Below, one piece after another: positions 10,782 through 43,671 of a DNA stretch of 64,000 nucleotides. The notes under the pieces are model-generated. The model had not been told where the DNA came from. It did not search any database and saw nothing but the letters and a program-made list of their open reading frames with translations. The position numbers were made by a program, and so were the translations under genes. Position 1 is the first letter of the stretch. Each line of letters starts with the position of its first letter. This DNA comes from an uncultured Gammaproteobacteria bacterium (GTDB lineage Bacteria; Patescibacteriota; Patescibacteriia; Magasanikbacterales; GWA2-37-8): positions 332,830 to 396,829 of the forward strand of contig CAZQUL010000001.1 in assembly GCA_964596525.1 (NCBI GenBank). Direction: 5' to 3'.

Positions 10782-10911
10782 GTCATTGCGAGCGGAGCGA
10801 AGCCCGTCCGCCATGGCAGCAAAGGTGCGCCGGGCGGGCAATCCCCTTGATACCAGGGTGAGTTCAAAATACAGAGGGATTGCTTCGCTTCGTACCTCAA
10901 CTCGCAACGAC
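10782..10911. repeat. MITE-like repeat copy 1 (module A)
   Basis: TIR GTCATTGCGAG...CTCGCAACGAC. Core AGCCCGTCCGCCATGGCAGCAAAGGTGCGCCGGGCGGGCAATCCC plus stem GCAATCCC/GGGATTGC. Shared with copies at 17500, 43536 and, inverted, 37809. Confidence 0.8.
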
Positions 10912-10919
10912 AGTGAATT

Positions 10920-12527
10920 TTATCGGGTCGTTGTGGCAAAATCCGTGCCAAGGACGATAATAAGGTCGGGCGGGGTAAGTGGTTGGGTGGAAGACGCGGC
11001 CGACCACGAGCCGGAAGAAGAGGGGTTGGTATAGGGTTCGAGAATCCAGTTGGGGAGTTTAGTAATGAGGTCGAGCTGGAGTTTTTGGGCTAAAGCGCGG
11101 GCGGTCGGCGTGGCGGATTCGTTAATTACGTAGAGACCAGAGGCGCCAATGGGGCGTTCCGTAGTATTGCCGATAGAACGAACCGGGATGCCCTGCCCTT
11201 CAAGATCTTTTTTGAGCTTGGCGGCCAAACCGACTTCCCAGGTGCCGTTTTGGATTTCGAGCGCAACGAGGCGTTCGGCGAGCGAAGTGGGTTTGACGGT
11301 GATCGGCGCGGATTTGGTGGAAGTGGCGGCTGGAGTAGAGACGTCTTTGACCGTGATTCTGGTGAGCGTGGTAGAAGGGCTGAAGACGTTGGCGATAAGT
11401 TCGTTTATGGCCTTAAATGAGCCACTTCGAGGAACTAATACATCACCTAGTTGGTTGCGCACGCCGGTTAAAAGATCGCGGCCGTTGTCGTCGAGCACGA
11501 CGGTTTTTACTTTTTCGGATTCGATGGTTCGGGCAAAACCGGCCATGGCCAGAAGATCGTTGAAGGTGAGGTTGGTGCTGACATGGTTTGCAACTGAGTC
11601 CATGATATTTTTGAGCGCTACCGGGTTGCCGAGCGTGCCGAGCGATAAGACTTTTTCTTTAAGCGCGAGGAGTACTTGCTGCTGGCGGCGCGAGCGGGCA
11701 AAGTCCGATCCTTCGCCGTTTGAGCCGTGCCGCGAGCGGGCAAACATGAGGGCGCGCCGCCCGTTCATTTTTTCTTCGCCGGTCGTGAAGGAGACTTTGA
11801 GGTAGCGGCACGGGCTCGCTTCGGTTTCGCCCACACAATCAGCACCCTCGGCTTTGCCTGGGTTGGGATAGCGGTAATCGACGAAACTTTTGCCGACATT
11901 CACCGTAATTCCGCCCACCGCATCGATAATGTCTTCGAACGCTTTAAAATCCACGCGAATGTAGTAGGGGATCGGCGTTTCAAACTGTTCAGCGAAGAAT
12001 TGGCGGGAGAGTTCGGGGCCAAGGCCGGGGTTGCGGAGTTCATTATATGCATGTACTGCATTGATTTTTTGGTAATTGTAGACCGGCATTTTTACCATGA
12101 GGTCGCGCGGGATAGAGATGAGAGCGACGTCTTTGGTGGTGGGACGGATACTCGCGATAATGTTGGTGTCACTTAGATTAGAGCCTTCGTGGCCTGGGCC
12201 GCCAATGCCAAGGAGTAAAATATTGATGCGATCATTTTCTTCACCGACAAGCGGCAGGCGTTCGCCGAAGAAGAAGTTCTTGAGCGAAGAGAAAATAGTG
12301 TTCTTTTGCGGGGTGAGAGTAATGTCTTCGGTCTGCAACCCTGTTGGTTCCGAATCATCTTTATATAAAAGGAAACTCCCGATGATAATGCCGAGTACAA
12401 TCACAAAAAGAGCCGCCGCCGCGATGAGGAGTTTTTTTGTCCGCGCGGGGGAGGGCGGTTTTTCGAAGGTGGCTGAAGAAGTTCCAAAAGAATAGCGTCG
12501 CAACATAGAATGGAGGAATTGTACCAC
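10920..12527 (-). CDS. LytR-CpsA-Psr (LCP) family cell-envelope phosphotransferase with C-terminal LytR_C-like domain
   Basis: N-terminal TM anchor. LCP core INILLLGIG...SDTNIIASI...ISIPRD. Long Ser/Thr-rich C-terminal extension. Confidence 0.85.
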   Translation of the reverse strand: MVQFLHSMLRRYSFGTSSATFEKPPSPARTKKLLIAAAALFVIVLGIIIGSFLLYKDDSEPTGLQTEDITLTPQKNTIFSSLKNFFFGERLPLVGEENDRINILLLGIGGPGHEGSNLSDTNIIASIRPTTKDVALISIPRDLMVKMPVYNYQKINAVHAYNELRNPGLGPELSRQFFAEQFETPIPYYIRVDFKAFEDIIDAVGGITVNVGKSFVDYRYPNPGKAEGADCVGETEASPCRYLKVSFTTGEEKMNGRRALMFARSRHGSNGEGSDFARSRRQQQVLLALKEKVLSLGTLGNPVALKNIMDSVANHVSTNLTFNDLLAMAGFARTIESEKVKTVVLDDNGRDLLTGVRNQLGDVLVPRSGSFKAINELIANVFSPSTTLTRITVKDVSTPAATSTKSAPITVKPTSLAERLVALEIQNGTWEVGLAAKLKKDLEGQGIPVRSIGNTTERPIGASGLYVINESATPTARALAQKLQLDLITKLPNWILEPYTNPSSSGSWSAASSTQPLTPPDLIIVLGTDFATTTR

Positions 12528-12581
12528 ACTTGGGAAGGGGGCTCAATGTTTGAATAAAAAGAATTGAAGCACGGATTTTCG

Positions 12582-12694
12582 CCGTTGCGTGAAGCGAGTT
12601 AGACGAGCGACTCGTCTGGGCGGGCAATCCCTCAGTAATTCAGAATTCACATTAATATTAAGGGGATTGCCTCGTCGTTCCTCCTCGCAGTGAC
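12582..12694. repeat. MITE-like repeat copy 2 (divergent variant)
   Basis: Shares GGGCGGGCAATCCC...GGGGATTGCCTCGTCGTTCCTCCTCGCAGTGAC with the other copies. Left arm is replaced by the hairpin AGACGAGCGACTCGTCT. Confidence 0.6.
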
Positions 12695-12780
12695 AGTGCT
12701 ACATATATTGCGTTTCATAGCCCTTGCCACTCCAAACACCCTATGTTACTGTGATAGCAGCTTATCCGCTCTTTCCGCAT

Positions 12781-12854
12781 GGTCGTGTAGCTCAGTTGGT
12801 TAGAGCATTGCATTCACATTGCAAGGGTCACTGGTTCGAGTCCAGTCACGACTA
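12781..12854 (+). tRNA. tRNA-Val (anticodon CAC)
   Basis: Manual fold: acceptor GGTCGTG/CACGACT, D-arm GCTC/GAGC, anticodon stem TTGCA/TGCAA with loop TTCACAT, T-arm ACTGG-TTCGAGT-CCAGT. No encoded CCA. Confidence 0.85.
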
Positions 12855-12898
12855 CATTTTTTGCCTTCATTTGATCATTAATTACTTTCGCTTGTCGT

Positions 12899-13402
12899 AT
12901 GCCGCGTGATCTTGGTCGCGAAGATGTGCCGCTCGGCACGATTCATCATCAGTGGATTATTAAAGAATACCGTCAGTACGAGCGCAGTAAGACGTGGTAC
13001 CTCATCGTCGGACTCATCGGGGCGGCGTTACTTGCGTACGCGCTTCTTAGTAACAATAACTCGTTTGCGGTTATTATCGTGCTTGCTGCGGTTATATTGT
13101 ATCTCAATGAGCACCAGCGGCCGCTCGAGCTTAACTTTGCGCTCACGGATGCTGGCATAGTACTTGGCGAAAAAGTGTACACTTACCGCGAAGCCGAACG
13201 GTTCTGGATCGTGTATGAGCCGGGTGACGTGCAGGCGCTCTATCTTGTGCTCAAAGGAGTTGTGAAGAAAAATGTCACGATTCCGCTTGAAGGCAATGAC
13301 CCGCGACCGATCCGCCAGTTCCTTATCCGCTTCGTGCGCGAAGACGTGAATGGCGAAGAGCCGCTCTCGGATCGGTTGTCCCGTATCTTTAAGATACAGT
13401 AA
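12899..13402 (+). CDS. hypothetical membrane protein (two TM helices, possible bacterial PH-like domain)
   Basis: Two adjacent hydrophobic helices followed by a roughly 90-aa soluble domain. Lies between two tRNA genes. Confidence 0.55.
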   Translation: MPRDLGREDVPLGTIHHQWIIKEYRQYERSKTWYLIVGLIGAALLAYALLSNNNSFAVIIVLAAVILYLNEHQRPLELNFALTDAGIVLGEKVYTYREAERFWIVYEPGDVQALYLVLKGVVKKNVTIPLEGNDPRPIRQFLIRFVREDVNGEEPLSDRLSRIFKIQ

Positions 13403-13455
13403 CTCTTGACGTCGGGGCTAAAGTGGGGTACAACCAGTACGTCACGTACTGAGTT

Positions 13456-13527
13456 GCATCCATCGTTCAATGGATAGGACATGGGTTTGCGGAACCCAAA
13501 ATCTAGGTTCGATTCCTAGTGGATGCA
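13456..13527 (+). tRNA. tRNA-Arg (anticodon GCG, unusual)
   Basis: Manual fold: acceptor GCATCCA/TGGATGC, D-arm GTTC/GGAC with A20, anticodon stem TGGGT/ACCCA with loop TTGCGGA (U33, G34 C35 G36), T-arm CTAGG-TTCGATT-CCTAG, discriminator A. Confidence 0.7.
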
Positions 13528-13685
13528 CGAAATCTTCAAACCAACCATCGACATGCTCGGTGGTTGGTTTGTTTTTCAATAATATTCATATTCACCCGAC
13601 CGTTGACAGAACAGGGTAGGCATGCCAGTCTGTGCCATCCGAAGCACGCCGTTTCGGATGTTTGAAACCCCAAAGGAGTCTGAAG

Positions 13686-14126
13686 ATGAAGCGAAAGATG
13701 CTAGTAGGCGCCGTAGTTATGGGAGCTTGCTCGTTTATTGGCTGCGCGAGCACGCCGCCAGTTCAGGTGTTTTACCGGCCGCTTACCCGCTCCACGCTCA
13801 TGTCGCGTGTGGATGCTGAAATCCACAAGCGCGTGATGTTCGCGGTTAAGAAGGAATGCAGTTACGATCCGCGTCGCCTTGAGAATGCCCCGGATTCTGA
13901 TGAGCGGCCCCGTATGTGCATGACGCTCGATGAAAAATCATGCCGATTGGTTCTCTTGCGACAGATGCACCGGGTCGCTGATGTTATTAACATGGACATA
14001 ATGACTCAGTGCGCGTCAGCCCGGACTGATTGTCTGCATGGTGTATACGTGGCGGTTAGGGATTATCCCACGGAAAACTACACCTGCATCGCGATCGATT
14101 CCCGGGATTCGCTTCCTCGTGAGTAG
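13686..14126 (+). CDS. hypothetical lipoprotein
   Basis: AAGGAG Shine-Dalgarno. MKRKMLVGAVVMGACSFIGCAS lipoprotein signal. Cys-rich mature part. Confidence 0.6.
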   Translation: MKRKMLVGAVVMGACSFIGCASTPPVQVFYRPLTRSTLMSRVDAEIHKRVMFAVKKECSYDPRRLENAPDSDERPRMCMTLDEKSCRLVLLRQMHRVADVINMDIMTQCASARTDCLHGVYVAVRDYPTENYTCIAIDSRDSLPRE

Positions 14127-14174
14127 GTGAAACAAGAGTCGTAAGATAAAGAATACAGTGATAAGGAGAGTATC

Positions 14175-14588
14175 GTGAAAAAGATACGTACCATGCTGTT
14201 TAGTTCCTTGTTGTTTTGTGCCTGCGCACACACGGCGCCGTCGGTGGGAACCACTCCTTCCGTTCTGGCACCGCCCACGCAGGAGGAATTGCGCGAGACG
14301 ATTATCCGCGCCACCACCGCGACCAAGACGGCCTGCAACAATCCCGGCGATCGTTTTCTAGAAATGGATGAGGCGAGGGATGGCAAGGTTCTCTGCCTTG
14401 TCTCGATGGTGGTGAGCTGCCGCGAGCGCTTCAAAATCGAGATGGGTATGGCGACCACTATGGCGAATCGCCTGCAAGAAGCATGCAGTCGCGGTGCGTC
14501 GGGAGTCGGCTGTGATGACCATCCTGGAAATCGGTATGTGGTCGTCGATGACAAGACCCTAAACCGGGCCTGCGTCGAGGTCCGGTAG
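14175..14588 (+). CDS. hypothetical lipoprotein
   Basis: GTG start after AAGGAGAG. Signal LLFCACAHT. Several Cys, loosely similar to the upstream lipoprotein. Confidence 0.6.
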   Translation: MKKIRTMLFSSLLFCACAHTAPSVGTTPSVLAPPTQEELRETIIRATTATKTACNNPGDRFLEMDEARDGKVLCLVSMVVSCRERFKIEMGMATTMANRLQEACSRGASGVGCDDHPGNRYVVVDDKTLNRACVEVR

Positions 14589-14750
14589 TCCGCCGCGGTA
14601 TAATTGCGGGAAGGTTGCTTCCTGCGGTTGGCCGCGGTTTTTTTGTTTTAATTCCGGCTGTGTTATGCTATTCATCCCGTAGTATCCTTGACATGTTTGA
14701 CCGACCTTTTTAGTATCTATCTTGCTTCACAACAACGAAAGGTTGAAATC

Positions 14751-15137
14751 ATGTTTGAGAACCTACGCCGCCGTCTTTCTGCCGCCCCTTTTTCCGCCCT
14801 CATGGTTCTGGTTTCTGCTGATGCATTGATTGGTCGTTGCAGTGGTGAGCCTTCAATTACGACACACACCACGACACGTGCGGAGCTGATTGATGGTCGC
14901 GGCCGCCAGGATGTCTACTTCCAGTGCGGCAAGCCGGCCGGCGTAGCCCGCGCTTATGTGCTGCAGCACCAAGGCCAGATCGCGGAGAACGCAGCTACGT
15001 ATTTCGGCGTTCAGGCCGATCGTCTGGGAATGGTTCAGGGCGTGCGCGAGATAACGGATCCGCAGGGCAGCGTTGATACCTACTACTGCATCGGTTATTG
15101 GAATATGCTTGCCGCTTCGCCGCCTGGCTCCCACTAA
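14751..15137 (+). CDS. hypothetical secreted protein
   Basis: ATG 14751 with AAAGG upstream. Signal-peptide-like N-terminus FSALMVLVSADALIGRCSG. The longer track ORF from 14688 lacks a Shine-Dalgarno. Confidence 0.5.
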   Translation: MFENLRRRLSAAPFSALMVLVSADALIGRCSGEPSITTHTTTRAELIDGRGRQDVYFQCGKPAGVARAYVLQHQGQIAENAATYFGVQADRLGMVQGVREITDPQGSVDTYYCIGYWNMLAASPPGSH

Positions 15138-15148
15138 TGTAGAATAAC

Positions 15149-17499: not shown

Positions 17500-17638
17500 G
17501 TCATTGCGAGGAGTGTAACGACGTAGCCCGTCCGCCATGGCAGCACAGCGTGCCGGGGGGCAATCCCTTCGTACTTCAGAGCTCACTCTTGGATCAAGGA
17601 GATTGCTTCGTCGTTCGTCTGACTCACTCCCCGCAATG
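17500..17638. repeat. MITE-like repeat copy 3 (module A)
   Basis: GTCATTGCGAGGAGTG...AGCCCGTCCGCCATGGCAGCACAGCGTGCCGGGGGGCAATCCC...GAGATTGCTTCGTCG...CCCCGCAATGAA. Its right end overlaps the ATG 17636 of the next gene. Confidence 0.8.
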
Positions 17639-18148
17639 AAAAAGATTTCATTGCCGTACTCCATGTCTCCGTCGTCGCGCGTCAATCGACCGATCATCGC
17701 TACCGTGCTTATCGTGTTTCTCTTTACGTTCATCGTATCGCGGCTTTTCGTGTACCTCGTGCTTGGGCACCTGATGCCGAATTTCTTTTTGGAAATCGGT
17801 GGTGTGCATGTGCATCATTTTACGTACGGCGTATTCGTGCTCTCCATCTGCGGCATGGTTCTTCTCATCAAACGGCCGGTTGTCGGGTCAGCGCTGTTTC
17901 GCATACTCACGGTGGCGTACGGCGTAGGGATCGGCCTCACCTTCGACGAGTTCGGCATGTGGATCCGGCTTGAAGATAATTATTGGGTACGGCAAAGTTA
18001 TGACGCTATCATCATCACTCTTCTTGTTTTGCTTAACATTACGTTTTGGCATGAAATAAAACTTCTGACGCGGGAGTTTGTCGGCATGCTGCGGCATATC
18101 GGCCAATCGTGCGACCGGTATATTATTAAAAAACTGCGGGGGCGCTAG
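17636..18148 (+). CDS. hypothetical membrane protein
   Basis: MKKISLPYSM... with about 4 TM segments. The track ORF from 17537 reads through the repeat element. The real start is probably ATG 17636 at the repeat edge. Confidence 0.55.
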   Translation: MKKISLPYSMSPSSRVNRPIIATVLIVFLFTFIVSRLFVYLVLGHLMPNFFLEIGGVHVHHFTYGVFVLSICGMVLLIKRPVVGSALFRILTVAYGVGIGLTFDEFGMWIRLEDNYWVRQSYDAIIITLLVLLNITFWHEIKLLTREFVGMLRHIGQSCDRYIIKKLRGR

Positions 18149-18846: not shown

Positions 18847-18955
18847 GAATAGAAAACGCTTCAATTTTCCTTAGCTAAGCCATTATTTTGTTTTATTGCA
18901 TATGTTAGCCAAGATTTAGGAGTCTTTTTGGGCTAATGTTAGCCCCGTTCTACCC

Positions 18956-18984
18956 TTGACAAGACCGTAAAAATATGGTATACT
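18956..18984 (+). promoter_or_regulatory. sigma70 promoter P1 (consensus -35, extended -10)
   Basis: TTGACA (18956-61), 17-nt spacer, TGgTATACT (18976-84). Confidence 0.65.
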
Positions 18985-19085: not shown

Positions 19086-19113
19086 TCCGCTAAGTATAGC
19101 GACCGAGATAATC

Positions 19114-19142
19114 TTGACAAGACTCAAAAAGTATGGTATACT
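19114..19142 (+). promoter_or_regulatory. sigma70 promoter P2 (near-identical copy of P1)
   Basis: CTTGACAAGAC...TGGTATACT with 17-nt spacer. Same core as P1. Confidence 0.6.
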
Positions 19143-22136: not shown

Positions 22137-22333
22137 AGTTCATCAGTAAAACCAAAAAACTACCCTTAAACCGGTAGTTTTTTGGCGTTCAAGAGCGGAA
22201 ATATTTGTTCCTTCATAGGCTTGACAAAACGGAGAAAATAAAGTATACATATACGTCGATTCGATTCATGTAAGAGCTCGGATTGTATAGTTCCGAGTTG
22301 TTTCTGGACAGAAATCCTGAAGGAGGCGCGCTC

Positions 22334-23833: not shown

Positions 23834-23938
23834 AGTGATAGTAGTGCAGATAATCTAGCATATGCGCTCTGCTCCGTCATCTGTCACTCTCAGTACGTGG
23901 CGCTTCTGCTTCTTGTTGACAAAGTGAGTTGTGATTAT

Positions 23939-23978
23939 TGAGGGAATGCTTCGCTTCGTACCTCAGCTCGCAATGACT
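23939..23978. repeat. MITE-like repeat, solo right-arm fragment
   Basis: GAGGGAATGCTTCGCTTCGTACCTCAGCTCGCAATGAC matches the right 40 bp of copy 1. Confidence 0.6.
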
Positions 23979-25632: not shown

Positions 25633-25706
25633 GGGCCAATAGCTCAGCTGGCTAGAGCGCTTCCATGGCATGGAAGAGGTCCGGGGTTCAAATCCCCGTT
25701 GGTCCA
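25633..25706 (+). tRNA. tRNA-Ala (anticodon GGC)
   Basis: Manual fold with the Ala identity pair G3:U70. Anticodon loop ATGGCAT. T-arm CGGGG-TTCAAAT-CCCCG. Confidence 0.9.
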
Positions 25707-25719
25707 CAAAATCAAAAAA

Positions 25720-25739
25720 CAGCCGCGCGGCTGTTTTTT
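25720..25739 (+). terminator. rho-independent terminator after tRNA-Ala
   Basis: CAGCCGC/GCGGCTG palindrome followed by TTTTTTG. Confidence 0.75.
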
Positions 25740-25886
25740 GATTTCCATAAGAAAATTCGGAAAGTGTGGTTTTATCTTGACCATTTCCGCGGTCTCTGTT
25801 ACATTTCGCTGTTCCGTGAGGTGCGCTGCAACTGGCTACGGATGTTCGTTGACCTGCTCCTTGAAGGGCAGAAGGAGAGAGAAAAA

Positions 25887-27620
25887 ATGAAGAAATTGAC
25901 CTGGAAGGACTATATTCTCTTTGTTGTCGCTGCGTGTATGGCCGGAGCGTTGTATTACCACGAGGCAGTGGTGAAGCACGATCCGTATGCCAACTTCGTC
26001 GAAGTGGCGCAGGATATCCGCGACCACAAGGTGAAAGAGATTGTTGTGCAGAGTGAAAAGCTGGAGGTGAAGTTCACAACTGGTGCGAAACGCCTGTACC
26101 CCAAGGAAGGTGCTGAGAGTTTTGAGCATCTGGCGGAGCGTTACAAGATTTCGCCGGAGATGCTCGCTGGCATCAAGATCGTGAACGAATCTTACAAAGG
26201 TTTTTTCGATCTGCTGACGTTCCTTATTACGCTCGCCATCCCAATTGGGGCATTCTTCTTCTTGAGAAGGACAGGGGTCAGAGGGATGAGGATTGAGCAG
26301 GTGATGAAATGCAACGTCACCTTTGCCGATGTGGCCGGACTTGCGCCGGCTAAGGCCGAGCTCACCGACATTGCGGCGTGCCTCGAGCGTAAGGACGATT
26401 GCGCCCGCTACGATATTCGGCTGCCGCGCGGTATCTTGTTTACCGGCGAGCCGGGTACGGGCAAGACCCTTCTGGCCCGAGCACTCGCCGGCGAGACGAA
26501 AGCGGCGTTTTTCACCGTCAGTGGGTCGCAGTTCGTGGATACATTCGTCGGTTCGGGTGCGCGCAATGTGCGCAACCTGTTTGATGCGGCGCGCGCTGCG
26601 GTGGTCAAGACCAAGCACCCGGCGATCATCTTCATCGATGAGATCGACGCTGTGGGTGTGAAAAGGACAGATCATCCGCTAGGAAATGACCAGCGCGACC
26701 AGACGCTCAACGAGCTCCTCGTCGCGATGGATGGTCTTGTCTCCGACAACGCCATCGTCGTCATCGCGGCCACCAACCGGCCCGACATGCTCGACGGGGC
26801 GCTCCTGCGTCCGGGCCGCTTCGATCGTAAGATCCATCTGGAACTACCGGACCGTGCGGCTCGCCGTGCCATCCTCGAGATCCACGTGCGCGAGAAGCCG
26901 CTCGCGTCGAGCGTCGCGCTCGATACCATCGCCGCTCGTACCGCCGGATTTTCGGGCGCCCAGCTCGAGAGTCTGGTGAACGAAGCGGCCATCCTCATGA
27001 TCCGTGCCGGAGAGATCCACATCACGGGCCGCATCATGGATGAAGCGATGGACAAGGTGCTCGTGGGTGTGGGCAACGCGCGGGTCGTAACGGGAGAAGA
27101 GCGGGAACGCGTCGCTTATCACGAAGCCGGACATGCGATCGCGGCGCATTTCTTGCCGCACTGCAAAGGCCTGCGCCGCGTTTCCATCGTGCCACGCGGC
27201 ATGACCGGCGGTTTCACCATGGTGACACCGGAGCATGAGAACTCGCTGCGTACCCGTGCCGAGCTTGAGGAGCAGCTCGTCATGATCATGGCTGGCTACG
27301 CTGCCGAGGTGAGTAAGTATGGCGAGAGCGGCCTTTCTACGGGCTGCACTAACGACCTCGAGCGTGCGGATTCCCTGGTGCGGTACATGGTGACGAGGTG
27401 GGGAATGGTGCCGGAGGTGGGCTTCTTCACCCCGGCGCAGGGCGTGTCCGAGGAGCGGCGAGAGCGGGTGGACGAAGCGGTGAAAGACCTGCTCACGCAG
27501 GCGCGAAATCGCGCCGCTGAACTGCTTGCTACACATAGCGCGCTTTGGATGCGTCTCGCCCATGAGCTTATGAACAAGGAGACGCTCAACGAGGCAGAAC
27601 TCACCGTGCTCCTTGGTTAG
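25887..27620 (+). CDS. ftsH: ATP-dependent zinc metalloprotease FtsH (paralogue 1)
   Basis: AAGGAG Shine-Dalgarno. Two TM helices flanking a periplasmic domain. Walker A GEPGTGKT, Walker [38 protein letters not shown] zinc site. Confidence 0.9.
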   Translation: MKKLTWKDYILFVVAACMAGALYYHEAVVKHDPYANFVEVAQDIRDHKVKEIVVQSEKLEVKFTTGAKRLYPKEGAESFEHLAERYKISPEMLAGIKIVNESYKGFFDLLTFLITLAIPIGAFFFLRRTGVRGMRIEQVMKCNVTFADVAGLAPAKAELTDIAACLERKDDCARYDIRLPRGILFTGEPGTGKTLLARALAGETKAAFFTVSGSQFVDTFVGSGARNVRNLFDAARAAVVKTKHPAIIFIDEIDAVGVKRTDHPLGNDQRDQTLNELLVAMDGLVSDNAIVVIAATNRPDMLDGALLRPGRFDRKIHLELPDRAARRAILEIHVREKPLASSVALDTIAARTAGFSGAQLESLVNEAAILMIRAGEIHITGRIMDEAMDKVLVGVGNARVVTGEERERVAYHEAGHAIAAHFLPHCKGLRRVSIVPRGMTGGFTMVTPEHENSLRTRAELEEQLVMIMAGYAAEVSKYGESGLSTGCTNDLERADSLVRYMVTRWGMVPEVGFFTPAQGVSEERRERVDEAVKDLLTQARNRAAELLATHSALWMRLAHELMNKETLNEAELTVLLG

Positions 27621-27668: not shown

Positions 27669-27787
27669 TAATTGCGTTCGATCCGACCATTACGCGTTTC
27701 TTTAAAGCTTGACTTTTTTGCCTTCTTAAGGTTTAGTATCCTGTTCCCTCCGCGGTGGAGGGCGGTTCGTTAACAAAGGAGGCTGTC

Positions 27788-29656
27788 GTGAAGGTGCCCA
27801 AGTTCAAGTTCCGGATGGATTATCTGATTCTGCTCTTGTTTGTGATCTCGCTCGGCCGTAGCACGTATGTCGAGATGTGGAAGTTACCACATAACTCATA
27901 TAACAATTTCAGCGAGCTGGCGGATGACATCCGCGCTGGAAAGGTCCTCAAGATAACGGTAGAGCCGAACCGCCTGACGGTCCAGAAGTCCGGCGGCGTA
28001 ACGAGGTTCCTCAGCAAGGATAACGATACGTTTGAAACGCTCTCCATGCGCTACAAGCTCGAGACATCGCATCTTGATCGGGTTACGATTGCTCACAAGG
28101 GCGAACGTGGCTGCGCGGCGTCGACGAGCGACGTGTTGTTTTCGCCGGGAGCGCTGCTCGCTCTCTACTTCTTATTCGGCCGTCGGTCTCCGTCGTCCGA
28201 GGAGAATAAGGAAGAGAAAGACGATGCTGGTGACGATAAGGACAAGAAAGAGAAGCCGCGCGGGTTGGAAGGGTTCTTCCAGCGCGTCAAGGAAGCTCTC
28301 AATCCCAAAGGAATCGAGATCGAAGAGGCGACCGAGTGTGCGACGACCTTCGCCGATGTGGCCGGTCTCGAGCCGGCCAAGGAGGAGCTCCGCGACATCA
28401 TCGTCTATATCAAGAATCCGGAGTCGTTCGAGCGCCACAACATCCGGCTGCCGCGTGGCATTCTCTTCACCGGCGATCCGGGGACGGGCAAGACGCTCCT
28501 CGCCCGTGCACTCGCCGGCGAGCTCAAGGCATCGTTTTTTACCACCAGCGGCTCGCAGTTCGTAGACGTGTTCGGCGGATTGGGAGCGCGCAACGTGCGT
28601 GATCTGTTCGCCCGGGCGCGGCAGGCCGTGGAACAGAAGAAACATCCGGCTGTTATCTTCATCGACGAGATCGATGCGGTCGGCGGCGCGCGTAGCGACA
28701 ATCCGTCGTTCCATCCGGAACGGGATCAGACGCTCAACCAGCTGCTCGTCGAGATGGATGGACTCAAGAAACAGGCGGGCATCATCGTGATCGCGGCCAC
28801 CAACCGGCCGGATATGCTCGACCCGGCACTCTTGCGACCTGGCCGTTTCGATCGCAAGATTCATCTCGAGCTCCCTGACCGGGCGGCGCGGTTCGATATC
28901 CTAACGATCCACGCCCGACAGAAGCCGCTCGCCCCAGACGTTTCGCTCCTCGACATCGCCGCTCGTACGGCTGGCGTGTCCGGCGCGCAGCTCGAGAGCC
29001 TGATGAACGAAGCCGGAATCCTCATGCTGCGCCAAAACGAGACGGTGATCACGAACGAGATGATCGCCGAAGCTACGGACAAGGTGCTCATGGGCGTCGG
29101 CAACGGTCGGATCCTCACGCCCGAAGAGCGCGAGCGTACGGCCTGCCACGAAGCCGGTCACACCCTCGTCGGGTATGCACTTGATCACTGCGATCCGGTG
29201 CGCCGCGTTTCCATCGTAGCGCGCGGCGAGGCCGGCGGCTTCACCATGGTCGCGCCCGAGCATGATGATCCGTCGCATACCAAGGAGCAGCTCGAGGATA
29301 TCCTGGCGATGACCATGGCCGGCTATGCCGCCGAGGTCAGTAAGTATGGCGAGAGCGGTCTCTCGACCGGCGCCGCAAGCGATCTCGAGCGGGCCGAGAA
29401 GCTGGCGTGGTACATGGTGACCACCTGGGGAATGAAGCGCGAGGTCAGTTTTTTCACCGATATCGAGCGCGCTTCCGAAGCGCGCATTCAGATGATCGAG
29501 AAGACGGTGAACGAACTACTCACCACTGCCTACGGTCGGGCGTTCGAGCTCCTCAAGAAGCACGAGCTCAAGTGGAAGAACGTGGCCGATGCTCTCATTG
29601 AGAAGGAAGTGCTGGATGAGGATGATCTCGAGCGGATGCTCGATCAGCTTGATTAG
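27788..29656 (+). CDS. ftsH: ATP-dependent zinc metalloprotease FtsH (paralogue 2) with Lys/Asp/Glu-rich linker
   Basis: AGGAGG then GTG 27788; the ATG at 27755 is an alternative start. Walker [15 protein letters not shown]. Insertion [24 protein letters not shown] after TM2. Confidence 0.9.
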
Positions 29657-36144: not shown

Positions 36145-37416
36145 ATGCGCTCCTACATCGTCGATCTGCATGTCCATTCCAAATATTCGCGCGCCTGTTC
36201 CAAGAATCTCGAAATTCCTGCCATCGCTCAAGCGTGCGTAAAGAAAGGTATTAACATCATTTCTACCGGCGATGCTTTGCACCCTGCCTGGCTTACCCAT
36301 CTCAAAGAAACTTTAGTTGAGGATGCGCCAGGTATCTTTAAAGTCAAAGATGGCACTTCGCCGACGCGCTTTATCCTCGGCACCGAGGTCGCCTGCATCT
36401 ACAAGCACCGCGGCGCTACGCGTCGTCTGCATCTTTTATTGTTTTTTCCGTCGTTTGAAACTCTCGATACGGTGGTGGCCGAGCTCGTGAGACGAGGTTA
36501 TAACATTTCCTCCGATGGCCGCCCGATCCTTGGGCTCTCGGCAAAAGATTTGCTCCAACTCATGCTCGATATTGATGTGCGCTCAGTAATGATACCAGCG
36601 CATGCCTGGACGCCGTGGTTTGCGGTCTTCGGTTCCAAATCTGGTTACGATTCGCTCACGGATTGTTTTGAAGAGCTCACGCCGCATATTCGCGCTATCG
36701 AAACCGGTCTCTCGAGTGACCCGGTGATGAACCGTCGCTTATCTCTTCTCGACGACATTACCCTCATCTCCAACTCTGATGCGCACGGACTCGATAACTT
36801 GGGGCGCGAGGCGAACGTGCTTGCCTTTGAAAACGACGCCATGGTTACCTATGATGCAGTGATGAACGCTATCAAAGCGGGGGATAAGAAGCATTTTTTG
36901 TACACAATAGAGTTTTATCCGGAAGAAGGAAAGTATCATGCCGATGGCCACGCAGCCTGCAAGGTATCGCTCGCACCCGAAGAATCTTTTAAGCTTGATG
37001 GTCTGTGTCCGGTATGCAAAAAACCGCTCACCATCGGCGTACTCAACCGCGTGGCAAAACTCGCCGATCGCACGATCGAAGAAATTCCGACCGGAAAATT
37101 CATTCCTCACCGCTACATCGTTCCGCTGCGCGAAGTAATTGCGCAGGTGTACAACATCGGTGTCGCAAGTAAAAAAGTCGCTGCCGAGTATGAGCGCCTT
37201 ACATCTCGCGTCGCCGATGAGTTCACGCTTCTTCTCACAACGCCCATAGAGCAAATCCACGCTGAAGCGCTTGATGCACGCGTTGCTGATGCGGTTGATA
37301 ATATGCGTAACGGCAACGTCCGAGTCACGCCTGGCTACGACGGCATCTTTGGTGTTATCGAAGTGATTTCAAAAGGAGAAAAACTCCCGATGTACCGGCA
37401 GCAAAGCTTGCTATAG
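36145..37416 (+). CDS. PHP-domain nuclease, endonuclease Q-like (TIGR00375-type)
   Basis: DLHVHSKYS at the N-terminus plus HAWTPWF and SNSDAH metal ligands, with a CPVCKK zinc-finger-like segment. About 420 aa, as in EndoQ-family proteins. Confidence 0.6.
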   Translation: MRSYIVDLHVHSKYSRACSKNLEIPAIAQACVKKGINIISTGDALHPAWLTHLKETLVEDAPGIFKVKDGTSPTRFILGTEVACIYKHRGATRRLHLLLFFPSFETLDTVVAELVRRGYNISSDGRPILGLSAKDLLQLMLDIDVRSVMIPAHAWTPWFAVFGSKSGYDSLTDCFEELTPHIRAIETGLSSDPVMNRRLSLLDDITLISNSDAHGLDNLGREANVLAFENDAMVTYDAVMNAIKAGDKKHFLYTIEFYPEEGKYHADGHAACKVSLAPEESFKLDGLCPVCKKPLTIGVLNRVAKLADRTIEEIPTGKFIPHRYIVPLREVIAQVYNIGVASKKVAAEYERLTSRVADEFTLLLTTPIEQIHAEALDARVADAVDNMRNGNVRVTPGYDGIFGVIEVISKGEKLPMYRQQSLL

Positions 37417-37472: not shown

Positions 37473-37808
37473 TTATTTCCGTTTCGTGGTTTTTTTCTTG
37501 GCTTTCTTTTTCGTCGCTTTCTTTTTCATTGTCTTCTTCGCTGGTTTCTTTTTCTTAGTAGGCATACAAATGATGCTTAAAGAACGTTGTGAAAGGTAAT
37601 GCGCAGTGGTGCGCATCGAGCTTTCAGAAGTGTTGAGGTTTTTTTACCGGACAAGCATGTCGGTAAAATTCGACCTTGTTGTGATTATTATAAAACGAAT
37701 CGCAAGATAAATAAATGTTTTTGCGCGAAAGTTATGCACAGGAGAAAAAATTTTGTGCGTCGGTAAATTTTTTTGGAATTATTTTCATCGAGCGTGTTTT
37801 TATTTTTT

Positions 37809-37955
37809 TCATTGTGAGGAAGTAATTAGACGACTGACAGCTTGTCCCGATTAGATCGGGAAAGCAATCTTCTAGTATTTCAGAACTCACTCTGATATCA
37901 AGGGGGTTGCCCGCCCGGCACGCCTTTGCTGCCATGGCGGACGGGCTTCACTGCA
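37809..37955. repeat. MITE-like repeat copy 5 (module B plus inverted module A)
   Basis: TCATTGTGAGGAAG...GACGACTGACAGCTTGTCCCGATTAGATCGGGAAAGCAA...GGGGGTTGCCCGCCCGGCACGCCTTTGCTGCCATGGCGGACGGGCT, the last part being the reverse complement of module A. Confidence 0.75.
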
Positions 37956-37970
37956 CTCACACTGACGTTG

Positions 37971-39740: not shown

Positions 39741-39845
39741 AGTGGCTTAAGTGTAGTGGGGGAAGGGGAAAAGGACAAGATGGAGTTGGTAGCTTTTTAG
39801 CTAGTTAGCGTGGTAGGAGAGTGGCTCGTTAGGAAAATCGTATTG

Positions 39846-39972
39846 TCATTGCGAGGAAGGAGCCAGACGACTGACAGCCTGTCCCGATTAGATCGGGAAA
39901 GCAACCCTTCTGTACTTCAGAGTTCATTCTGTTATCAGGGGGATTGCTTCGTCGCTACGCTCCTCGCAATGA
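39846..39972. repeat. MITE-like repeat copy 6 (module B, perfect TIRs)
   Basis: GTCATTGCGAGGAAGG...TCCTCGCAATGAC. Core GACGACTGACAGCCTGTCCCGATTAGATCGGGAAAGCAA. Confidence 0.85.
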
Positions 39973-40026
39973 CATGTATTTTGAGGTTTAAACAAAAAGC
40001 CGCGGTGGGCGGCTTACGTGGTAGGG

Positions 40027-40686
40027 TTACTTCTTCGCCGCGGCGCGCTCGGCGAGCACCTGCTCGAAGTGCGCGGTAATGGAACGGTGTTGGGTGAGCA
40101 GGTCTTCGACGCTGGGTGTCGCGCCTTCGGGCGGAATCTCGTGACGGCCTTCAGCGCAGCACAGGCACAGTCCGCGGTCATTGAGGGCTTCTCGCGGCTC
40201 ACTGCAAGCGCAGTCACACGGGCACCAGCAGGTACGCAGTTCGTCGCAGATATCTTCAAAAACTTTTTTCCAGTTTGTATATCCACGCCGGCCGAGTCGG
40301 TACTTGTTCGTTGCGGTTGGTACATTCTTGTCGAAGCCGGCTCTGAGCCAGATGATATGCGTCACGCCGAGCTCGGTCGCGGTTGCTTGCAGGTCATCGG
40401 TCTTTTCGAAGTAGCGCACGTTCTCGCGTAGGAGGTGCGTTCTGGCATAAAAATCGTTTGCTTCGAGATGGCCGAGAAGATGCTGCGTTACTTCGTCTTT
40501 TTCTACGCCGAGTAGGTAAACTTTTTCGGCATCAAAGCGGTTTACGAGCGCTGGAACGAGTTCAAGATAGGTCGGATCGATCATGTAAGGCGACCCGATG
40601 AGAATCTCCGCTGGCGTTGGACCGCAGAGTGCCAGCGCTTCGATGGCGAAAACGAATCGACGGCCGGGAGTTATGGTGGTTTCCAT
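40027..40686 (-). CDS. hypothetical protein with C-terminal Cys cluster (CWCPCDCAC...CLCC)
   Basis: AAAGGA Shine-Dalgarno before ATG 40686. The longer track ORF to 40779 has no Shine-Dalgarno. No assignable family. Divergent from the sigma-factor gene. Confidence 0.5.
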   Translation of the reverse strand: METTITPGRRFVFAIEALALCGPTPAEILIGSPYMIDPTYLELVPALVNRFDAEKVYLLGVEKDEVTQHLLGHLEANDFYARTHLLRENVRYFEKTDDLQATATELGVTHIIWLRAGFDKNVPTATNKYRLGRRGYTNWKKVFEDICDELRTCWCPCDCACSEPREALNDRGLCLCCAEGRHEIPPEGATPSVEDLLTQHRSITAHFEQVLAERAAAKK

Positions 40687-40867
40687 GAGCGTCCTTTCGT
40701 GTACGGCGTGGTTCTGGCTGCACCAGCAATACCAAAAAACCATTAAAATGTCAATCATTGCCCGAGTAATTTTGCTCATCAGCTTTCATCAACTATCCGG
40801 CTTGACGGACTGCATGAATTGTGGGATCATCGCTAGCTTGTCGTGGTTACCAAGGAGGTAAAGGGTC

Positions 40868-41533
40868 GTGGAGAAGCAAGGTTCCAAGGAGGTATTAACT
40901 GCCGATCAACAGGCGCTCATTACGCCTAAAATGCTGAAATACGTTGACTATCTGGCCAAACGGCTGCACAAGAAAAATGGCGCGGCCAGAGCTTTAGGCT
41001 TTGAAGAGCTCGTGACGGCTGGCCGGTTTGGTCTGACCGAAGCGGCTGCGCGCTTTAATGAGCAGTTAGGAGTTACGTTTATTACGTTCGCTACACCACG
41101 GATACGGGGTGGCATGCTTGACCGGTTGCGGCAGGTACCTGGCTGGAATCGTCAAACAAAGATTCTCACCCCCCTTGTCCTTATAGGAGAAAGTCATCGC
41201 CTGAGCCATCTTTTCTTTTCCGGTCGGCACGTTTCGGGCGAACGGGATCCGTTTTCAGACAAAGATCAAACCGGAATGAGCGAAGCTGTCTTGAACCAAG
41301 CCAGCCCGGAAACCCTGGCGGTGCGCCGAGAACTTCTTGAGCGGATGAAGACCTGCATGGCGACGTTGAGCGTTAACGAGCAAACGGTTATTGCTTTACG
41401 CTATTTTCAGGGCGCTACGCTCGAAGAAATTGGCAAAGCAATCGGCCTTGAAAAGTCCTGGGTCTGCCGCCTGCATCACCGGGCGCTCGCTAAGCTCCAA
41501 AAAGCCCTTGGTGAAGATGTTGGTTCCTTATAA
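40868..41533 (+). CDS. sigma-70 family RNA polymerase sigma factor (FliA/SigF-like)
   Basis: Region 2 LVTAGRFGLTEAAARF...FATPRIRGGMLDRLR. Region 4 helix-turn-helix LSVNEQTVIALRYFQGATLEEIGKAIGLEKSWVCRLHHRALAKL. GGAGG then GTG. Confidence 0.85.
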   Translation: MEKQGSKEVLTADQQALITPKMLKYVDYLAKRLHKKNGAARALGFEELVTAGRFGLTEAAARFNEQLGVTFITFATPRIRGGMLDRLRQVPGWNRQTKILTPLVLIGESHRLSHLFFSGRHVSGERDPFSDKDQTGMSEAVLNQASPETLAVRRELLERMKTCMATLSVNEQTVIALRYFQGATLEEIGKAIGLEKSWVCRLHHRALAKLQKALGEDVGSL

Positions 41534-41619
41534 AAGTCCTTGTAGAGGCCGGCGCACGAGCGTCGGTTTTTTATTTAAAAAACGACGACCAGATGGTCGC
41601 CGCCGGGTCGTCGAAATAT

Positions 41620-42171
41620 CTACTGACGAGTGGCTAACGGTTCGAAGAACTCGCTGCATGAGATGTCGCTGCCGTCGGCGACGAAGTGGAAGCCGGTTCC
41701 CATTATCCGGCTTTTGAAGCGGCGCACCGCGACCGGACGGTTGTTGCGCTCCACCGTCGCGGTCGGCTCGTTCCAGGTGATTTCCGGATCGCCATTGATG
41801 CGGATGGTGAAACCGACGCCGACGCCGGTGGGAGCCTCGAGAACCCACAGGTCGTCAGCCGCATGACCGTTGAAAAAGTTGAATCGCCGCTTGGCATCGG
41901 GCGTGCGCGGCAGGCACGAACCGCTGTTACCATCGAAGACGACGATGTCCACGAACCGCACCGTCACTTCCTTGCCATCGACGGTAAATGCTGATGGCAG
42001 TCCGGGCGGCTTAATGGCGATGGTGTCTTGCCACACGGTGTAGGTGGAGCTGTTATGCCGGTCAGTCTCCTTCACCGGTGCGGGCTGTGCAGGCGCGGTC
42101 TGCTGTAGGGTCGTGGCACAGCCCGTGAAATACATGAGAACACATCCCAACCAGAACGTCTTCGGAATCAT
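41620..42171 (-). CDS. hypothetical lipoprotein
   Basis: TAAGGAGG Shine-Dalgarno. Signal WLGCVLMYFTGCAT. Terminator CGACGACC...GGTCGTCG downstream. Confidence 0.7.
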   Translation of the reverse strand: MIPKTFWLGCVLMYFTGCATTLQQTAPAQPAPVKETDRHNSSTYTVWQDTIAIKPPGLPSAFTVDGKEVTVRFVDIVVFDGNSGSCLPRTPDAKRRFNFFNGHAADDLWVLEAPTGVGVGFTIRINGDPEITWNEPTATVERNNRPVAVRRFKSRIMGTGFHFVADGSDISCSEFFEPLATRQ

Positions 42172-42275
42172 CGAGTCCTCCTTATAAGATGCGGAAGTTC
42201 CACCTCCTCAGGCTTTCATGGGTTGGGTGCTTTGTCAATATTTTAGGATAGTGTACATCTATAGCTCGCTAAGTC

Positions 42276-42304
42276 TTGACAATCAATACATAATGCCGTA
42301 TACC
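42276..42304 (+). promoter_or_regulatory. sigma70-like promoter of the collagen-like lipoprotein gene
   Basis: TTGACA, 17-nt spacer, TATACC. Confidence 0.55.
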
Positions 42305-42374
42305 AAGGGGGTCTCGCGTGCCTGCGAGATTGCCTTCACAACTGTACGAGCAGAACGTACCAAAGGAGTTCCCC

Positions 42375-43421
42375 ATGAAGCGTTTCCTGTCCAGCATCTC
42401 CGCCGCGCTCCTCCTGTGCTCCACCGTCTCCCTCTTCGGCTGCGACGAGGGCGAGGTCGTCGGCTCCGCCGGTCCGGCGGGCCAGGCTGGCCCCAAGGGC
42501 GACAAGGGAGACACCGGCGCCATGGGTGCCCCGGGCGCCGATGGCATGATGGGCACCATGGGCCCGGCCGGCACCAACGGCACCGGCGACGTCGTCGTCA
42601 CCGGGACCCTCGCGCCGACCCAGGGCTGGTCCTTCATGACCTTCCGCATGGGCGGCGCCTTCATGAACCGCGTCGTGTTCGCGGATGACTACGCCTACCC
42701 GCCCGAGAGCTTCGCTCTGCCCGGCCTGCCCGTCGCCTCCAGCCTGCGCCTCGAGACCGGCCCGTCGCTCGTCGACCCGGGCAACGCCGCGCAGCTCCTG
42801 GGTGGCAAGGCCTACGCCGGCTCCGCAGGCCAGAACTACACCCGCGTCGGCGACATCATGAGCGTCAAGTACGTCACCCGCGTCGACAGCGCCACGAGTG
42901 TCGCCGCGACCGGCCCCGGCTACCTCAACCTCTTCGTCTCGCCGGGCACCTCGGATCTCAAGACCGCCGCGGCGCGCAAGGCCTGGTTCGAGGCGGAGCC
43001 CACGGAGTACGATCTGATCGTCTTCGATCCGGCCTACTTCCCCAAGCCCGGCTACGCCCCCCAGAACGGCCGCTGGCAGGCCTGGATGCTCGACGACAAC
43101 GCGCCCGTGCGCTGCCGCCGGAGCAAGCTCGTCATCGACGGGACCGGCACGCGCTGCATCAAGGACGCGGAGGTGAAGTGGGGCGTGCTCAAGCAGTACA
43201 ACCCCGATGCCTTCCTCGTGCCGCCCCACTGCTCCGAGTTCGCGGCCGTCGCCCCGGCCATGTGCCCGGCCACCCCGCCGCAGCCCGGCCTGGTCTACGT
43301 CATCGGCTCGTCCACTGAGTCCGTGACCGCGCCCAACTGGAGCAACTTCAAGGTGAACCTCGGCGCCGTCGAGATCACCTACGAAGGGGACTACAAGCGG
43401 CGCTACCTGTTCGGCAAGTAG
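42375..43421 (+). CDS. lipoprotein with collagen-like Gly-X-Y triple-helix repeat
   Basis: AAAGGAG Shine-Dalgarno. Signal LLLCSTVSLFGC. 13 consecutive G-X-Y triplets GPAGQAGPKGDKGDTGAMGAPGADGMMGTMGPAGTNGTG. C-terminal roughly 250-aa globular domain. Confidence 0.75.
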   Translation: MKRFLSSISAALLLCSTVSLFGCDEGEVVGSAGPAGQAGPKGDKGDTGAMGAPGADGMMGTMGPAGTNGTGDVVVTGTLAPTQGWSFMTFRMGGAFMNRVVFADDYAYPPESFALPGLPVASSLRLETGPSLVDPGNAAQLLGGKAYAGSAGQNYTRVGDIMSVKYVTRVDSATSVAATGPGYLNLFVSPGTSDLKTAAARKAWFEAEPTEYDLIVFDPAYFPKPGYAPQNGRWQAWMLDDNAPVRCRRSKLVIDGTGTRCIKDAEVKWGVLKQYNPDAFLVPPHCSEFAAVAPAMCPATPPQPGLVYVIGSSTESVTAPNWSNFKVNLGAVEITYEGDYKRRYLFGK

Positions 43422-43535
43422 CGGCCTGACCGCGGCAGCGCCTGTGCCGCGTCCCGTGCCCATGCCTTGGATGTGAACCGCCCGGTTTCGAGCGCAAGCT
43501 TGGAACCGGGATTTTTTATTAAAAGTTTGTGTGGG

Positions 43536-43671
43536 TTATTGCGAGAACGAGGTACGAGCGACGAAGCCCGTCCGCCATGGCAGCAAGGCGTGCCGGGCGG
43601 GCAATCCTCTTGATATCAGAGTGGGCTCTGAATTACAGAGGGATTGCTTCGTCGTTCCTCCTCGCAATGAC
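43536..43671. repeat. MITE-like repeat copy 7 (module A)
   Basis: TTATTGCGAGAACGAGG...AGCCCGTCCGCCATGGCAGCAAGGCGTGCCGGGCGGGCAATCC...GGGATTGCTTCGTCGTTCCTCCTCGCAATGAC. It lies 80 bp upstream of clpC. Confidence 0.8.

Follow-up and report, generated by a model that had tools for sequence, protein, structure and literature searches.

Background

The closest described relatives of the repeats reported here are the CGTC-tagged palindromes, which Di Nocera, De Gregorio and Rocco (2013; PMC3733652) defined as a superfamily present in five phyla, their description giving no dedicated transposase. A member, according to that description, carries a CGTC tag (TGTC and CCTC being allowed), a stem starting with AT and a short tail of the CCA type; the stem measures 8-9 bp and the loop 4-5 nt, and the units occur mostly in pairs with the tags outside (HH), the partners being 20-100 bp apart. 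The same text equates CGTC-4 and CGTC-1 with the Rickettsia palindromic elements (RPEs) RPE-4 and RPE-6 and with dRS3 of Neisseria, and reports a preference for unlike units (heterodimers) in CGTC-2 and CGTC-3. In the present study we analyzed a stretch of 64,000 nucleotides (the window) of contig CAZQUL010000001.1 (assembly GCA_964596525.1), which probably derives from a small genome of the candidate phyla radiation (CPR), and which contains seven copies of a non-coding repeat of about 130 bp. Each element is an inverted pair, with tags directed outward (an "HH dimer"), of palindromic units that resemble repetitive extragenic palindromic (REP) sequences and that belong, on the published description, to the CGTC-tagged superfamily. 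We consider it reasonably probable that these paired REP-like units are non-autonomous selfish elements, which spread in the manner of REP doublets forming hairpins (REPINs).

In REPINs, two inverted REP units form one long hairpin, which is the unit of spread; the outer tetranucleotide is unpaired, no target duplication is produced, and the distribution is patchy. The bacterial interspersed mosaic elements (BIMEs) of E. coli contain pairs of Y and Z units. Among the miniature inverted-repeat transposable elements (MITEs), nested and mosaic forms are common.

Copies of the repeat in the window

The end motif GTCATTGCGAGGA, with up to two mismatches, occurs 11 times in the window (G+C content 53.9%), compared to 1.97 occurrences expected, and none of 100 shuffles equalled that count; the ends of the elements account for 10 of the 11 matches. 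Independent repeat detection recovered the family in both direct (D4, D6, D10, D13, D14) and inverted (I1, I2, I13) repeats. An nhmmer search of the 64 kb with the family alignment returned exactly seven sites (E values from 6e-33 to 3e-12) and no eighth copy. These are the same seven places that had been listed in a first-pass annotation of the window, and the sequences are as described there. The coordinates given in that annotation also hold for the sites as such, except that copy 4 is longer (23912-23977) and copy 5 extends to 37966. Terminal inverted repeats of 11-13 bp, which had been attributed to all copies, are present in copies 1, 3, 6 and 7 and are approximate in copies 2 and 5; the description does not apply to the half copy 4. 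All seven copies are intergenic and lie within 33 kb, the outer 31 kb of the window being without copies, and together they comprise 13 units.

Architecture of the paired units

A full copy consists of two REP-like units in inverted orientation, with a conserved spacer of about 33 nt between them. From outside to inside, each unit contains an unpaired [C/T]GTC head, a ATTGCGAG box, a variable interior and a CG(A/T)(A/G)GCAATC(C/T) box; in the window, the outer part reads GTCATTGCGAG(G) before the variable interior. In each of the six full copies, one inner box starts 39-40 nt from the start of the other, and each pair includes four copies of ATTGC in alternating orientation. Two types of hairpin, modules A and B, recur in the interiors. 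The copies are as follows:

Copy 1, 10782-10911, minus strand: full pair, composed of a plain unit and a module A unit; spacer reversed relative to copies 2, 3, 5 and 6
Copy 2, 12581-12694, plus strand: full pair; left end badly decayed
Copy 3, 17500-17640, plus strand: full pair; module A in the left unit
Copy 4, 23912-23977, minus strand: truncated, retaining a single end, a single plain unit and most of the spacer
Copy 5, 37808-37966, plus strand: full pair; module B on the left, inverted module A on the right; both ends decayed
Copy 6, 39845-39973, plus strand: full pair; both ends perfect; module B in the left unit
Copy 7, 43535-43671, minus strand: full pair, composed of a plain unit and a module A unit; spacer reversed

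The ends read GTCATTGCGAG (10782-10792) and CTCGCAACGAC (10901-10911) in copy 1, GCCGTTGCGTG (left, decayed) and CTCGCAGTGAC in copy 2, GTCATTGCGAG and CCCGCAATGAA in copy 3, and TTCATTGTGAG (left) and a degenerate CTCACACTGAC (right, 37956-37966) in copy 5. Eight of the 13 ends in the window begin with CGTC or TGTC, and the others are decayed. In the left end of copy 5, C8 is changed to T and its pairing partner G to A, a matching (compensatory) change in the outer stem. The inner boxes were located at 10838-10844 (GCAATCC) and 10877-10883 (GGATTGC) in copy 1, at 12624-12630 and 12664-12670 in copy 2, at 17560-17566 and 17600-17606 in copy 3, and at 37864-37870 and 37904-37910 in copy 5. The truncated copy 4, which was matched by nhmmer at 23909-23978 (E 2.8e-12), ends with CTCGCAATGAC at 23967-23977 and is 79% identical over 66 nt to the right half of copy 1 (D10).

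When the copies are aligned in canonical orientation, the spacer is kept in sequence, length and orientation, and the modules swap between the left and right units. Module A lies within the right-hand unit of copies 1, 5 and 7 and the left-hand unit of copy 3; module B lies within the left-hand unit of copies 5 and 6. The remaining units have a short plain interior, and the left unit of copy 2 carries a hairpin of its own, of a third type (AGACGAG-CGA-CTCGTCT). The individual modules are:

Module A of copy 1, 10801-10837, plus strand: CCGTCCGCCATGGCAGCA exact at 10804-10821; side hairpin in the predicted fold
Module A of copy 3, 17525-17559, plus strand: the same 18-mer exact at 17528-17545
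Inverted module A of copy 5, 37911-37947, minus strand: TGCTGCCATGGCGGACGG at 37927-37944
Module A of copy 7, 43565-43600, plus strand: the 18-mer exact at 43568-43585
Module B core of copy 5, 37837-37861, plus strand: hairpin TCCCGAT-TAG-ATCGGGA
Module B core of copy 6, 39874-39898, plus strand: near-twin at the same unit position in a Mucilaginibacter metagenome-assembled genome (MAG; locus L160)

The proposal in the first-pass annotation that copy 5 combines module B with an inverted module A was borne out by repeat detection: the left part of copy 6 (105 nt, 82% identity) is joined in copy 5 to an inverted module A, of which 24 nt are 100% complementary to the module A of copy 7 (I13). The exchangeable modules of that annotation are real; the term alternative hairpins, carried within the two REP-like units of a pair, describes them better. 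Because the orientation of the spacer is conserved in all copies, it was the pair, not the single unit, that was copied.

Folded as single-stranded DNA, the copies give stable predicted structures, with energies of -32 kcal/mol for copy 1 (z -4.3), -31.6 for copy 3 (z -3.9), -31.6 for copy 6 (z -5.9) and -37.5 for copy 7 (z -6.2); copy 4 folds no better than its shuffles (z +0.6). In the predicted fold, the heads pair as an outer stem of 11 bp and the inner boxes as a central stem, with the modules protruding as side hairpins. A universal four-way junction was considered and rejected, as three branches within the outer stem were predicted in only 36 of 156 elements, and a long branched hairpin is the more general form. 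The core (inner box, spacer and inner box) shows 74-83% identity between copies, with no closer pair, and we therefore regard the copies as old.

Related elements in other genomes and phages

The contigs of IMG/VR and the species genomes of GTDB were scanned for exact matches to both 10-nt ends at the spacing of the element. Matches were found in 55 IMG/VR contigs and in at least 120 GTDB genome stretches, and about 18 phyla are represented among the matches listed. The inner boxes, absent from the search pattern, are present in 172 of the 210 extracted elements, and the C and G of the inner box at positions -14 and -13 (four bases ahead of GCAATC) are each 92% conserved; the matches are therefore not due to chance. 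Conversely, a profile built from 191 foreign units matches units of the window with E values of 1.7e-9 (the right unit of copy 6), 3.3e-7 and 3.1e-5, and it gave no further match in the window outside these elements.

The hosts among the matches listed include many Bradyrhizobium and other Alphaproteobacteria, Rickettsiales, Legionellales, Coxiellaceae, and Beta- and Gammaproteobacteria, together with Desulfobacterota and three Helicobacter isolates. Chloroflexus, Anaerolineae and Dehalococcoidia are also found there, as are Pedobacter, Mucilaginibacter, Sphingobacterium, Flavihumibacter, Gracilimonas, Ignavibacteriae and Kapaibacterium. The same matches extend to Planctomycetota, Armatimonadetes, Gemmatimonadales, Elusimicrobia, Aminicenantales and Methylomirabilota, to Spirochaetaceae, Atribacterota and Bacillota, and, within the CPR, to Kuenen-, Komeili-, Shapiro- and Daviesbacteria.

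Across these phyla, the boxes (an 11-nt head and a 12-nt inner box) are near-invariant, whereas the sequence between them varies. Examination of the head in 135 non-redundant elements shows that the base before TCATTGCGAG is G in 133, and that the next base outward is C in 76 and T in 50; outside the head, there is neither conservation nor complementarity. At the inner side, GCAAT is followed by C in 280 of 280 units, then by C (164) or T (105), and then by A (123) or C (117); within pairs, these bases usually pair with the partner unit. The central stem extends past the box by 2.0 bp, compared to 0.35 bp in shuffles. The interiors measure from 9 to 73 nt, with modes at 9, 15-17, 19-20 and 42-51 nt. 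A stem of at least 4 bp is present in 77% of the interiors of 19-30 nt and in 22% of their shuffles, and on the basis of this excess we count the interior hairpins as maintained with many different sequences. Some of the interiors of the window recur elsewhere: besides the near-twin of module B in the Mucilaginibacter MAG, there is a B-like interior in a MAG of Komeilibacteria, and several Bradyrhizobium have A-like interiors (GTCCGCCAYRGC ... GGCGGAAGCAATCC). A separate search of metagenomes with the 20-nt core of module A yielded five matches, all of them chance similarities within coding sequence.

Pairs tend to combine dissimilar units: both have the same base after the head in only 40 of 140 pairs, compared to 60.6 expected, a bias that reflects the pairing of a short interior with a long one. 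It recalls the Y/Z pairs of BIMEs and is similar to the heterodimer preference described for CGTC-2 and CGTC-3. The extracted elements also include single units and head-only fragments. In several loci, solo heads (CGTCATTGCGAG followed by 4-12 nt) form two to four tandem repeats next to a complete element (L073 2730-2790, L169 1810-1870 and L054 6560-6640; also L013 and L057), and may have been left behind when elements were repeatedly excised and inserted, or inserted into one another.

Certain phage contigs of IMG/VR, recognized by portal-, capsid- and tail-like open reading frames (ORFs), carry dispersed units between their structural genes. Ten units were counted in L056 (13.7 kb) and 11 in L047 (8.8 kb), and others are present in L013, L009 and L043. 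It may be that phages harbour the family or contribute to its spread.

The nearest relatives of the host, as judged from their ABC-F genes (65-68% identical), contain no unit in about 75 kb of contig sequence, compared to 13 units in the window; these contigs are not syntenic around the ABC-F gene, such that the absence applies to the 75 kb as a whole and not site by site. The 65-68% identical genes are the next-best ABC-F homologues, and all of the named homologues (about 50% identity) are from Patescibacteria/CPR lineages. From this one protein, the source is probably a small, CPR-like genome. The only other assembly found to contain the identical ABC-F gene is a Logan contig (L001, from SRR11567528; 2,058 bp), the two ends of which fall inside copies 6 and 5. 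The repeats interrupt assembly from short reads, an indication that the genome contains further similar copies.

Target sites and neighbouring genes

No target-site duplication of 3 nt or more was found at offsets of 0-4 in the 135 non-redundant family members. The counts for k of 3 or more are within the range of the shuffles; for k=4, for example, 0-2 cases were observed and the shuffle maximum was 2-4. In the first-pass annotation, a local duplication was to be suspected if target-site duplications and further copies in the genome were both lacking. That view has been overtaken, as there are no such duplications, yet relatives are present in well over a hundred other genomes.

The window was said to contain no transposase, and this is confirmed for the 30 larger ORFs scanned out of about 61, in which no transposase-like domain was detected. 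Likewise, no REP-associated tyrosine transposase (RAYT) or other Y1/HUH gene was found in these 30 ORFs or in the family loci, i.e., 1.39 Mb of sequence fetched around the elements. In the same 1.39 Mb, a search for gene-sized elements bearing both ends (250-4000 bp) produced only two cases. In one (L129 111-1753), a thiC-like gene lies between two inverted single units, as if it had replaced the spacer of a pair; in the other (L054), 376 bp lie between two inverted units in a like manner.

The neighbours of the elements were compared by all-against-all BLASTP of the 1,834 ORFs situated no more than 600 bp from an end. No neighbour family recurred in more than three of the genome loci, and recurrent neighbours were found only among related phage contigs (portal, capsid and tail ORFs). 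GIY-YIG nucleases, small genes for which would sit next to such repeats, were considered as a general partner and rejected: a six-frame motif scan of the 1.39 Mb and the window gave a single match, a small GIY-YIG nuclease ORF within the repeat cluster of Flavihumibacter soli (L169, at about 2379).

Comparison with described repeat families

As in the published description of the CGTC superfamily, the family has a [C/T]GTC tag and every unit a palindrome starting with AT; six of the seven copies form pairs whose tags face outward, with about 33 nt between the inner boxes; and the elements are intergenic, often just after genes, and occur in several phyla, no linked transposase having been found in the ORFs and loci scanned. 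The tail bases resemble CC(A) in sequence, but are here usually paired with the partner unit.

Units of two families were deduced from their encoded peptides and stated lengths in PMC3733652. The CGTC-1 unit, deduced from the peptide VIPAKAGI (Additional file 3), would read CGTC-ATTCCCGC-GAAG-GCGGGAAT-CC, and the CGTC-3 unit, from the peptide VIAGLDPAI with a 9-bp stem and a 5-nt loop, CGTC-ATTGCCGGG-CTTGA-CCCGGCAAT-CC. Of the published families, CGTC-3 is the closest. Our elements have the head and ATTGC...GCAAT in common with this CGTC-3 unit, which is a reconstruction and not a published consensus, and resemble it in the sequence of the tail. Unlike CGTC-3, they possess only 5 complementary bp, followed by the conserved, non-complementary GAG and CG(A/T)(A/G), and a hairpin-bearing interior of 9 to more than 70 nt. 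Because their stem and loop differ from the published lengths (8-9 bp and 4-5 nt, respectively), we place the elements in the superfamily and outside its four published families. They form a new variant, set apart from the four CGTC families as these are described in print, where some of the Bradyrhizobium copies may already be counted.

RPE-4, RPE-6 and the dRS3 repeats of Neisseria intergenic mosaic elements (NIMEs) are, from the accounts of them, similar in being short palindromes with the same head, often paired and of unexplained mobilisation, and the dRS3/NIME repeats are assembled into mosaics with other repeats. The box sequences are different, e.g., the deduced ATTCCCGC-GAAG-GCGGGAAT. 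RPEs often lie within protein-coding sequence, in contrast to the seven copies of the window, which are all intergenic.

The REPIN/RAYT system shows the same inverted pair forming one long hairpin, an unpaired tetranucleotide head, no target-site duplication and a patchy distribution. It differs in its tag, which is GTAG in the REPs of Pseudomonas and E. coli and [C/T]GTC here, and in that no RAYT or Y1/HUH gene was found near any of our copies among the ORFs scanned; these copies are also far more diverged than a typical REPIN population. The BIMEs of E. coli and the Rhizobium-specific intergenic mosaic elements (RIMEs) are likewise mosaics of two alternating kinds of inverted REP unit and short motifs; their sequences are unrelated, and the mosaic parts are located between the units and not, as here, inside them. 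With MITEs of the Correia type, the elements share size, terminal inverted repeats, intergenic position, occurrence in multiple copies and the absence of coding sequence, and the target-site duplications and the transposase-bearing parent of such MITEs were not found. Searches of the literature for the sequence strings returned only unrelated primers, and no post-2013 work on RPEs, REPINs or RAYTs that bears on CGTC repeats was found.

Origin of the elements

The "REP-like" label used in the first-pass annotation proved to be in the right neighbourhood. The family is dispersed, non-coding, intergenic, hairpin-forming and mosaic. On the interpretation that we prefer, the elements encode nothing and would be non-autonomous selfish DNA that spread in the past in the host lineage. 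The pair, when single-stranded, would fold into a long hairpin, and an enzyme acting in trans would recognize the folded strand and cut at the conserved, unpaired head; such a structure-dependent route would leave no target duplication, as in REPINs. The present copies would then be old, diverging relics in tolerated intergenic positions, and any effects on neighbouring transcripts would be secondary. The copies lie beside terminators and before promoters and do not replace them. The data show the anatomy of the elements, their membership at the level of the superfamily, their wide distribution, the lack of target duplications, their absence from the contigs of the relatives and the age of the copies; mobility, the single-strand mechanism and the trans-acting enzyme are what we infer.

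Several observations weigh against this interpretation. If a REPIN or MITE population were active, it should contain closer copies than the present ones, in which core identity is 74-83% and no pair is near-identical. Within a unit, only ATTGC/GCAAT (5 bp) is complementary, compared to the published stems of 8-9 bp and loops of 4-5 nt. A mobilising enzyme is lacking among the 30 ORFs scanned, and the account of the CGTC repeats in PMC3733652 likewise reports no transposase; nor do the 1.39 Mb of family loci hold gene-sized elements beyond the thiC and 376-bp cases, or the genome loci a neighbour family in more than three of them. No empty site or insertion polymorphism was observed, such that movement in this lineage is deduced and not demonstrated. 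Covariation between the units of a pair (89 cases, compared to 61 expected from shuffles) is confounded by lineage and shared ancestry.

The first-pass annotation called the elements MITE-like. Classical MITEs would be internal deletion derivatives of an insertion sequence, mobilized by a DDE transposase which binds to the terminal repeats of 11-13 bp and duplicates the target site. The length of about 130 bp, the terminal inverted repeats, the intergenic location and the absence of coding capacity all agree with this reading, and nested and mosaic forms are no obstacle. Yet the 135 elements are not flanked by direct repeats of 3 nt or more at offsets of 0-4, no longer element with the same ends was seen in the 1.39 Mb of loci and no neighbour family recurs in more than three genome loci; conservation covers the internal boxes besides the ends, and the single units and head-only fragments fit REP-type units better than a two-ended transposon. 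We consider the classical MITE reading very unlikely and already largely refuted. That the similarity is due to chance, or to a purely local duplication, has practically no probability: the seven copies do lie within 33 kb with the outer 31 kb empty, but the excess of end motifs and the nhmmer E values (down to about 1e-33) speak against coincidence, the flanks are unrelated housekeeping genes and the family occurs in well over a hundred other genomes, so that this explanation is already refuted.

Two functional explanations are compatible with a selfish origin. In one, the repeats would be kept for a transcribed hairpin, i.e., a 3'-UTR stabiliser, processing site, attenuator or small RNA. Strong predicted folds, interior hairpins maintained through many sequences, the compensatory change in the outer stem of copy 5 and the position of copies 1, 3 and 5, which border 4-16 nt from a stop codon, are consistent with such a role, and Di Nocera et al. 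(PMC3733652) argue, in their treatment of the subject, that many REPs are transcribed. We nevertheless regard it as unlikely that the primary role of the family is at the RNA level. Rfam 15 gave no match at the gathering score or at E of 5 or less on the copies, and none on the elements in 18 foreign loci. The orientation of the spacer is independent of that of the flanking genes, both orientations being found; copies 2 and 4 lie between divergent genes, and copies 6 and 7 lie beyond canonical terminators (copy 7 also beside a promoter match), outside obvious transcripts. The hairpins lack a U-tract, and no element was called as an intrinsic terminator, the canonical terminators merely adjoining copies 6 and 7; moreover, the contigs of the relatives have no elements, and the ends of the copies are decaying. 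In the other explanation, the four ATTGC/GCAAT cores would be recognition sites of a protein-binding or recombination site recruited by the host or by phages, comparable to the BIMEs of E. coli, which bind gyrase and IHF, or to dRS3 of Neisseria, a phage integration site. The alternating cores and the near-invariant boxes with variable sequence between them would suit such sites, as would the many copies in related phage contigs, and by the published definition the CGTC-1 repeats of Neisseria are dRS3 (PMC3733652). The patchy distribution, with no unit in the contigs of the nearest relatives, the decaying ends in the window and the lack of a candidate protein make us consider this decidedly unlikely. 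A further possibility, also improbable in our estimation, is that the ATTGCGAG/GCAATC type represents a single ancient, pan-bacterial replicator without an element-encoded transposase, moved either by a broadly conserved host DNA enzyme that acts on the folded single strand or by a phage-carried enzyme. This would explain the invariant 11-nt head and 12-nt inner box across about 18 phyla, the occurrence in a small, probably CPR, genome and the related phage contigs with up to 10-11 units each.

Genomic setting and other features of the window

The seven copies are set among ordinary genes of the chromosome (der, a LytR-family gene, tRNA-Val, topA, a methyltransferase, a SpoIID-like protein, an ABC-F ATPase, a sigma factor and clpB). 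Copy 1 lies 9 nt past the stop of the LytR-family gene, upstream of der, and copy 2 has the start of the LytR-family gene on one side and tRNA-Val (12781) on the other. Copy 3 starts 16 nt beyond the topA stop (17484), and copy 4 lies between the divergent genes for the methyltransferase and the SpoIID-like protein. Copy 5 is located between convergent genes, its right end 4 nt ahead of the ABC-F stop (37971). Copy 6 is bracketed by the ABC-F start (39740) and the upstream gene's terminator (40015-39997, minus strand). On the two sides of copy 7 are a canonical terminator (43481-43510, plus strand) and, ahead of clpB, a promoter-like site (43695-43723). The ORF that adjoins copy 5 (36145-37416) resembles the uncharacterised family TIGR00375 below its cut-off (162 compared to 326.6 bits) and has no Pfam match; about half of the 30 scanned ORFs have no match in Pfam or NCBIfam.

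Two putative FtsH-like AAA protease genes, identified by ORF reading, are arranged in tandem on the plus strand (25665-27620 and 27755-29656) and show 72-77% DNA identity at a constant offset of 2027 nt (D1-D5). A promoter-like 30-mer, CTTGACAAGAC...GGTATACT, is repeated at 18955-18984, 19113-19142 and 22220-22249 and contains TTGACA-17-TATACT with an extended -10 (D7). Directly past tRNA-Ala, at 25709-25744, a perfect 22-nt palindrome with a T-run, AAATCAAAAAACAGCCGCGCGGCTGTTTTTTGATTT (I19), is probably a bidirectional terminator.

Conclusions

How CGTC-tagged palindromes spread has been an open question since their definition in 2013, in a group that includes the RPEs of Rickettsia and dRS3 of Neisseria and has no linked enzyme. 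The present family is modestly new: the kind of element was already known, and the novelty lies in its breadth, in its invariant boxes and in its occurrence in phages and in what is probably a CPR genome. One type of the superfamily is thus distributed far more widely than the five phyla originally described, and reaches CPR lineages and phages. For annotation, it is of practical note that the repeats also generate spurious ORFs. The window alone leaves the puzzle of mobilisation unsolved. The combination of invariant boxes and free hairpins suggests that a folded structure is recognized together with two short sequence boxes, and a small genome dense in copies narrows the list of candidate enzymes. 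If the type were indeed a pan-bacterial replicator, such a copy-dense minimal genome would be the best place to find the orphan CGTC enzyme.

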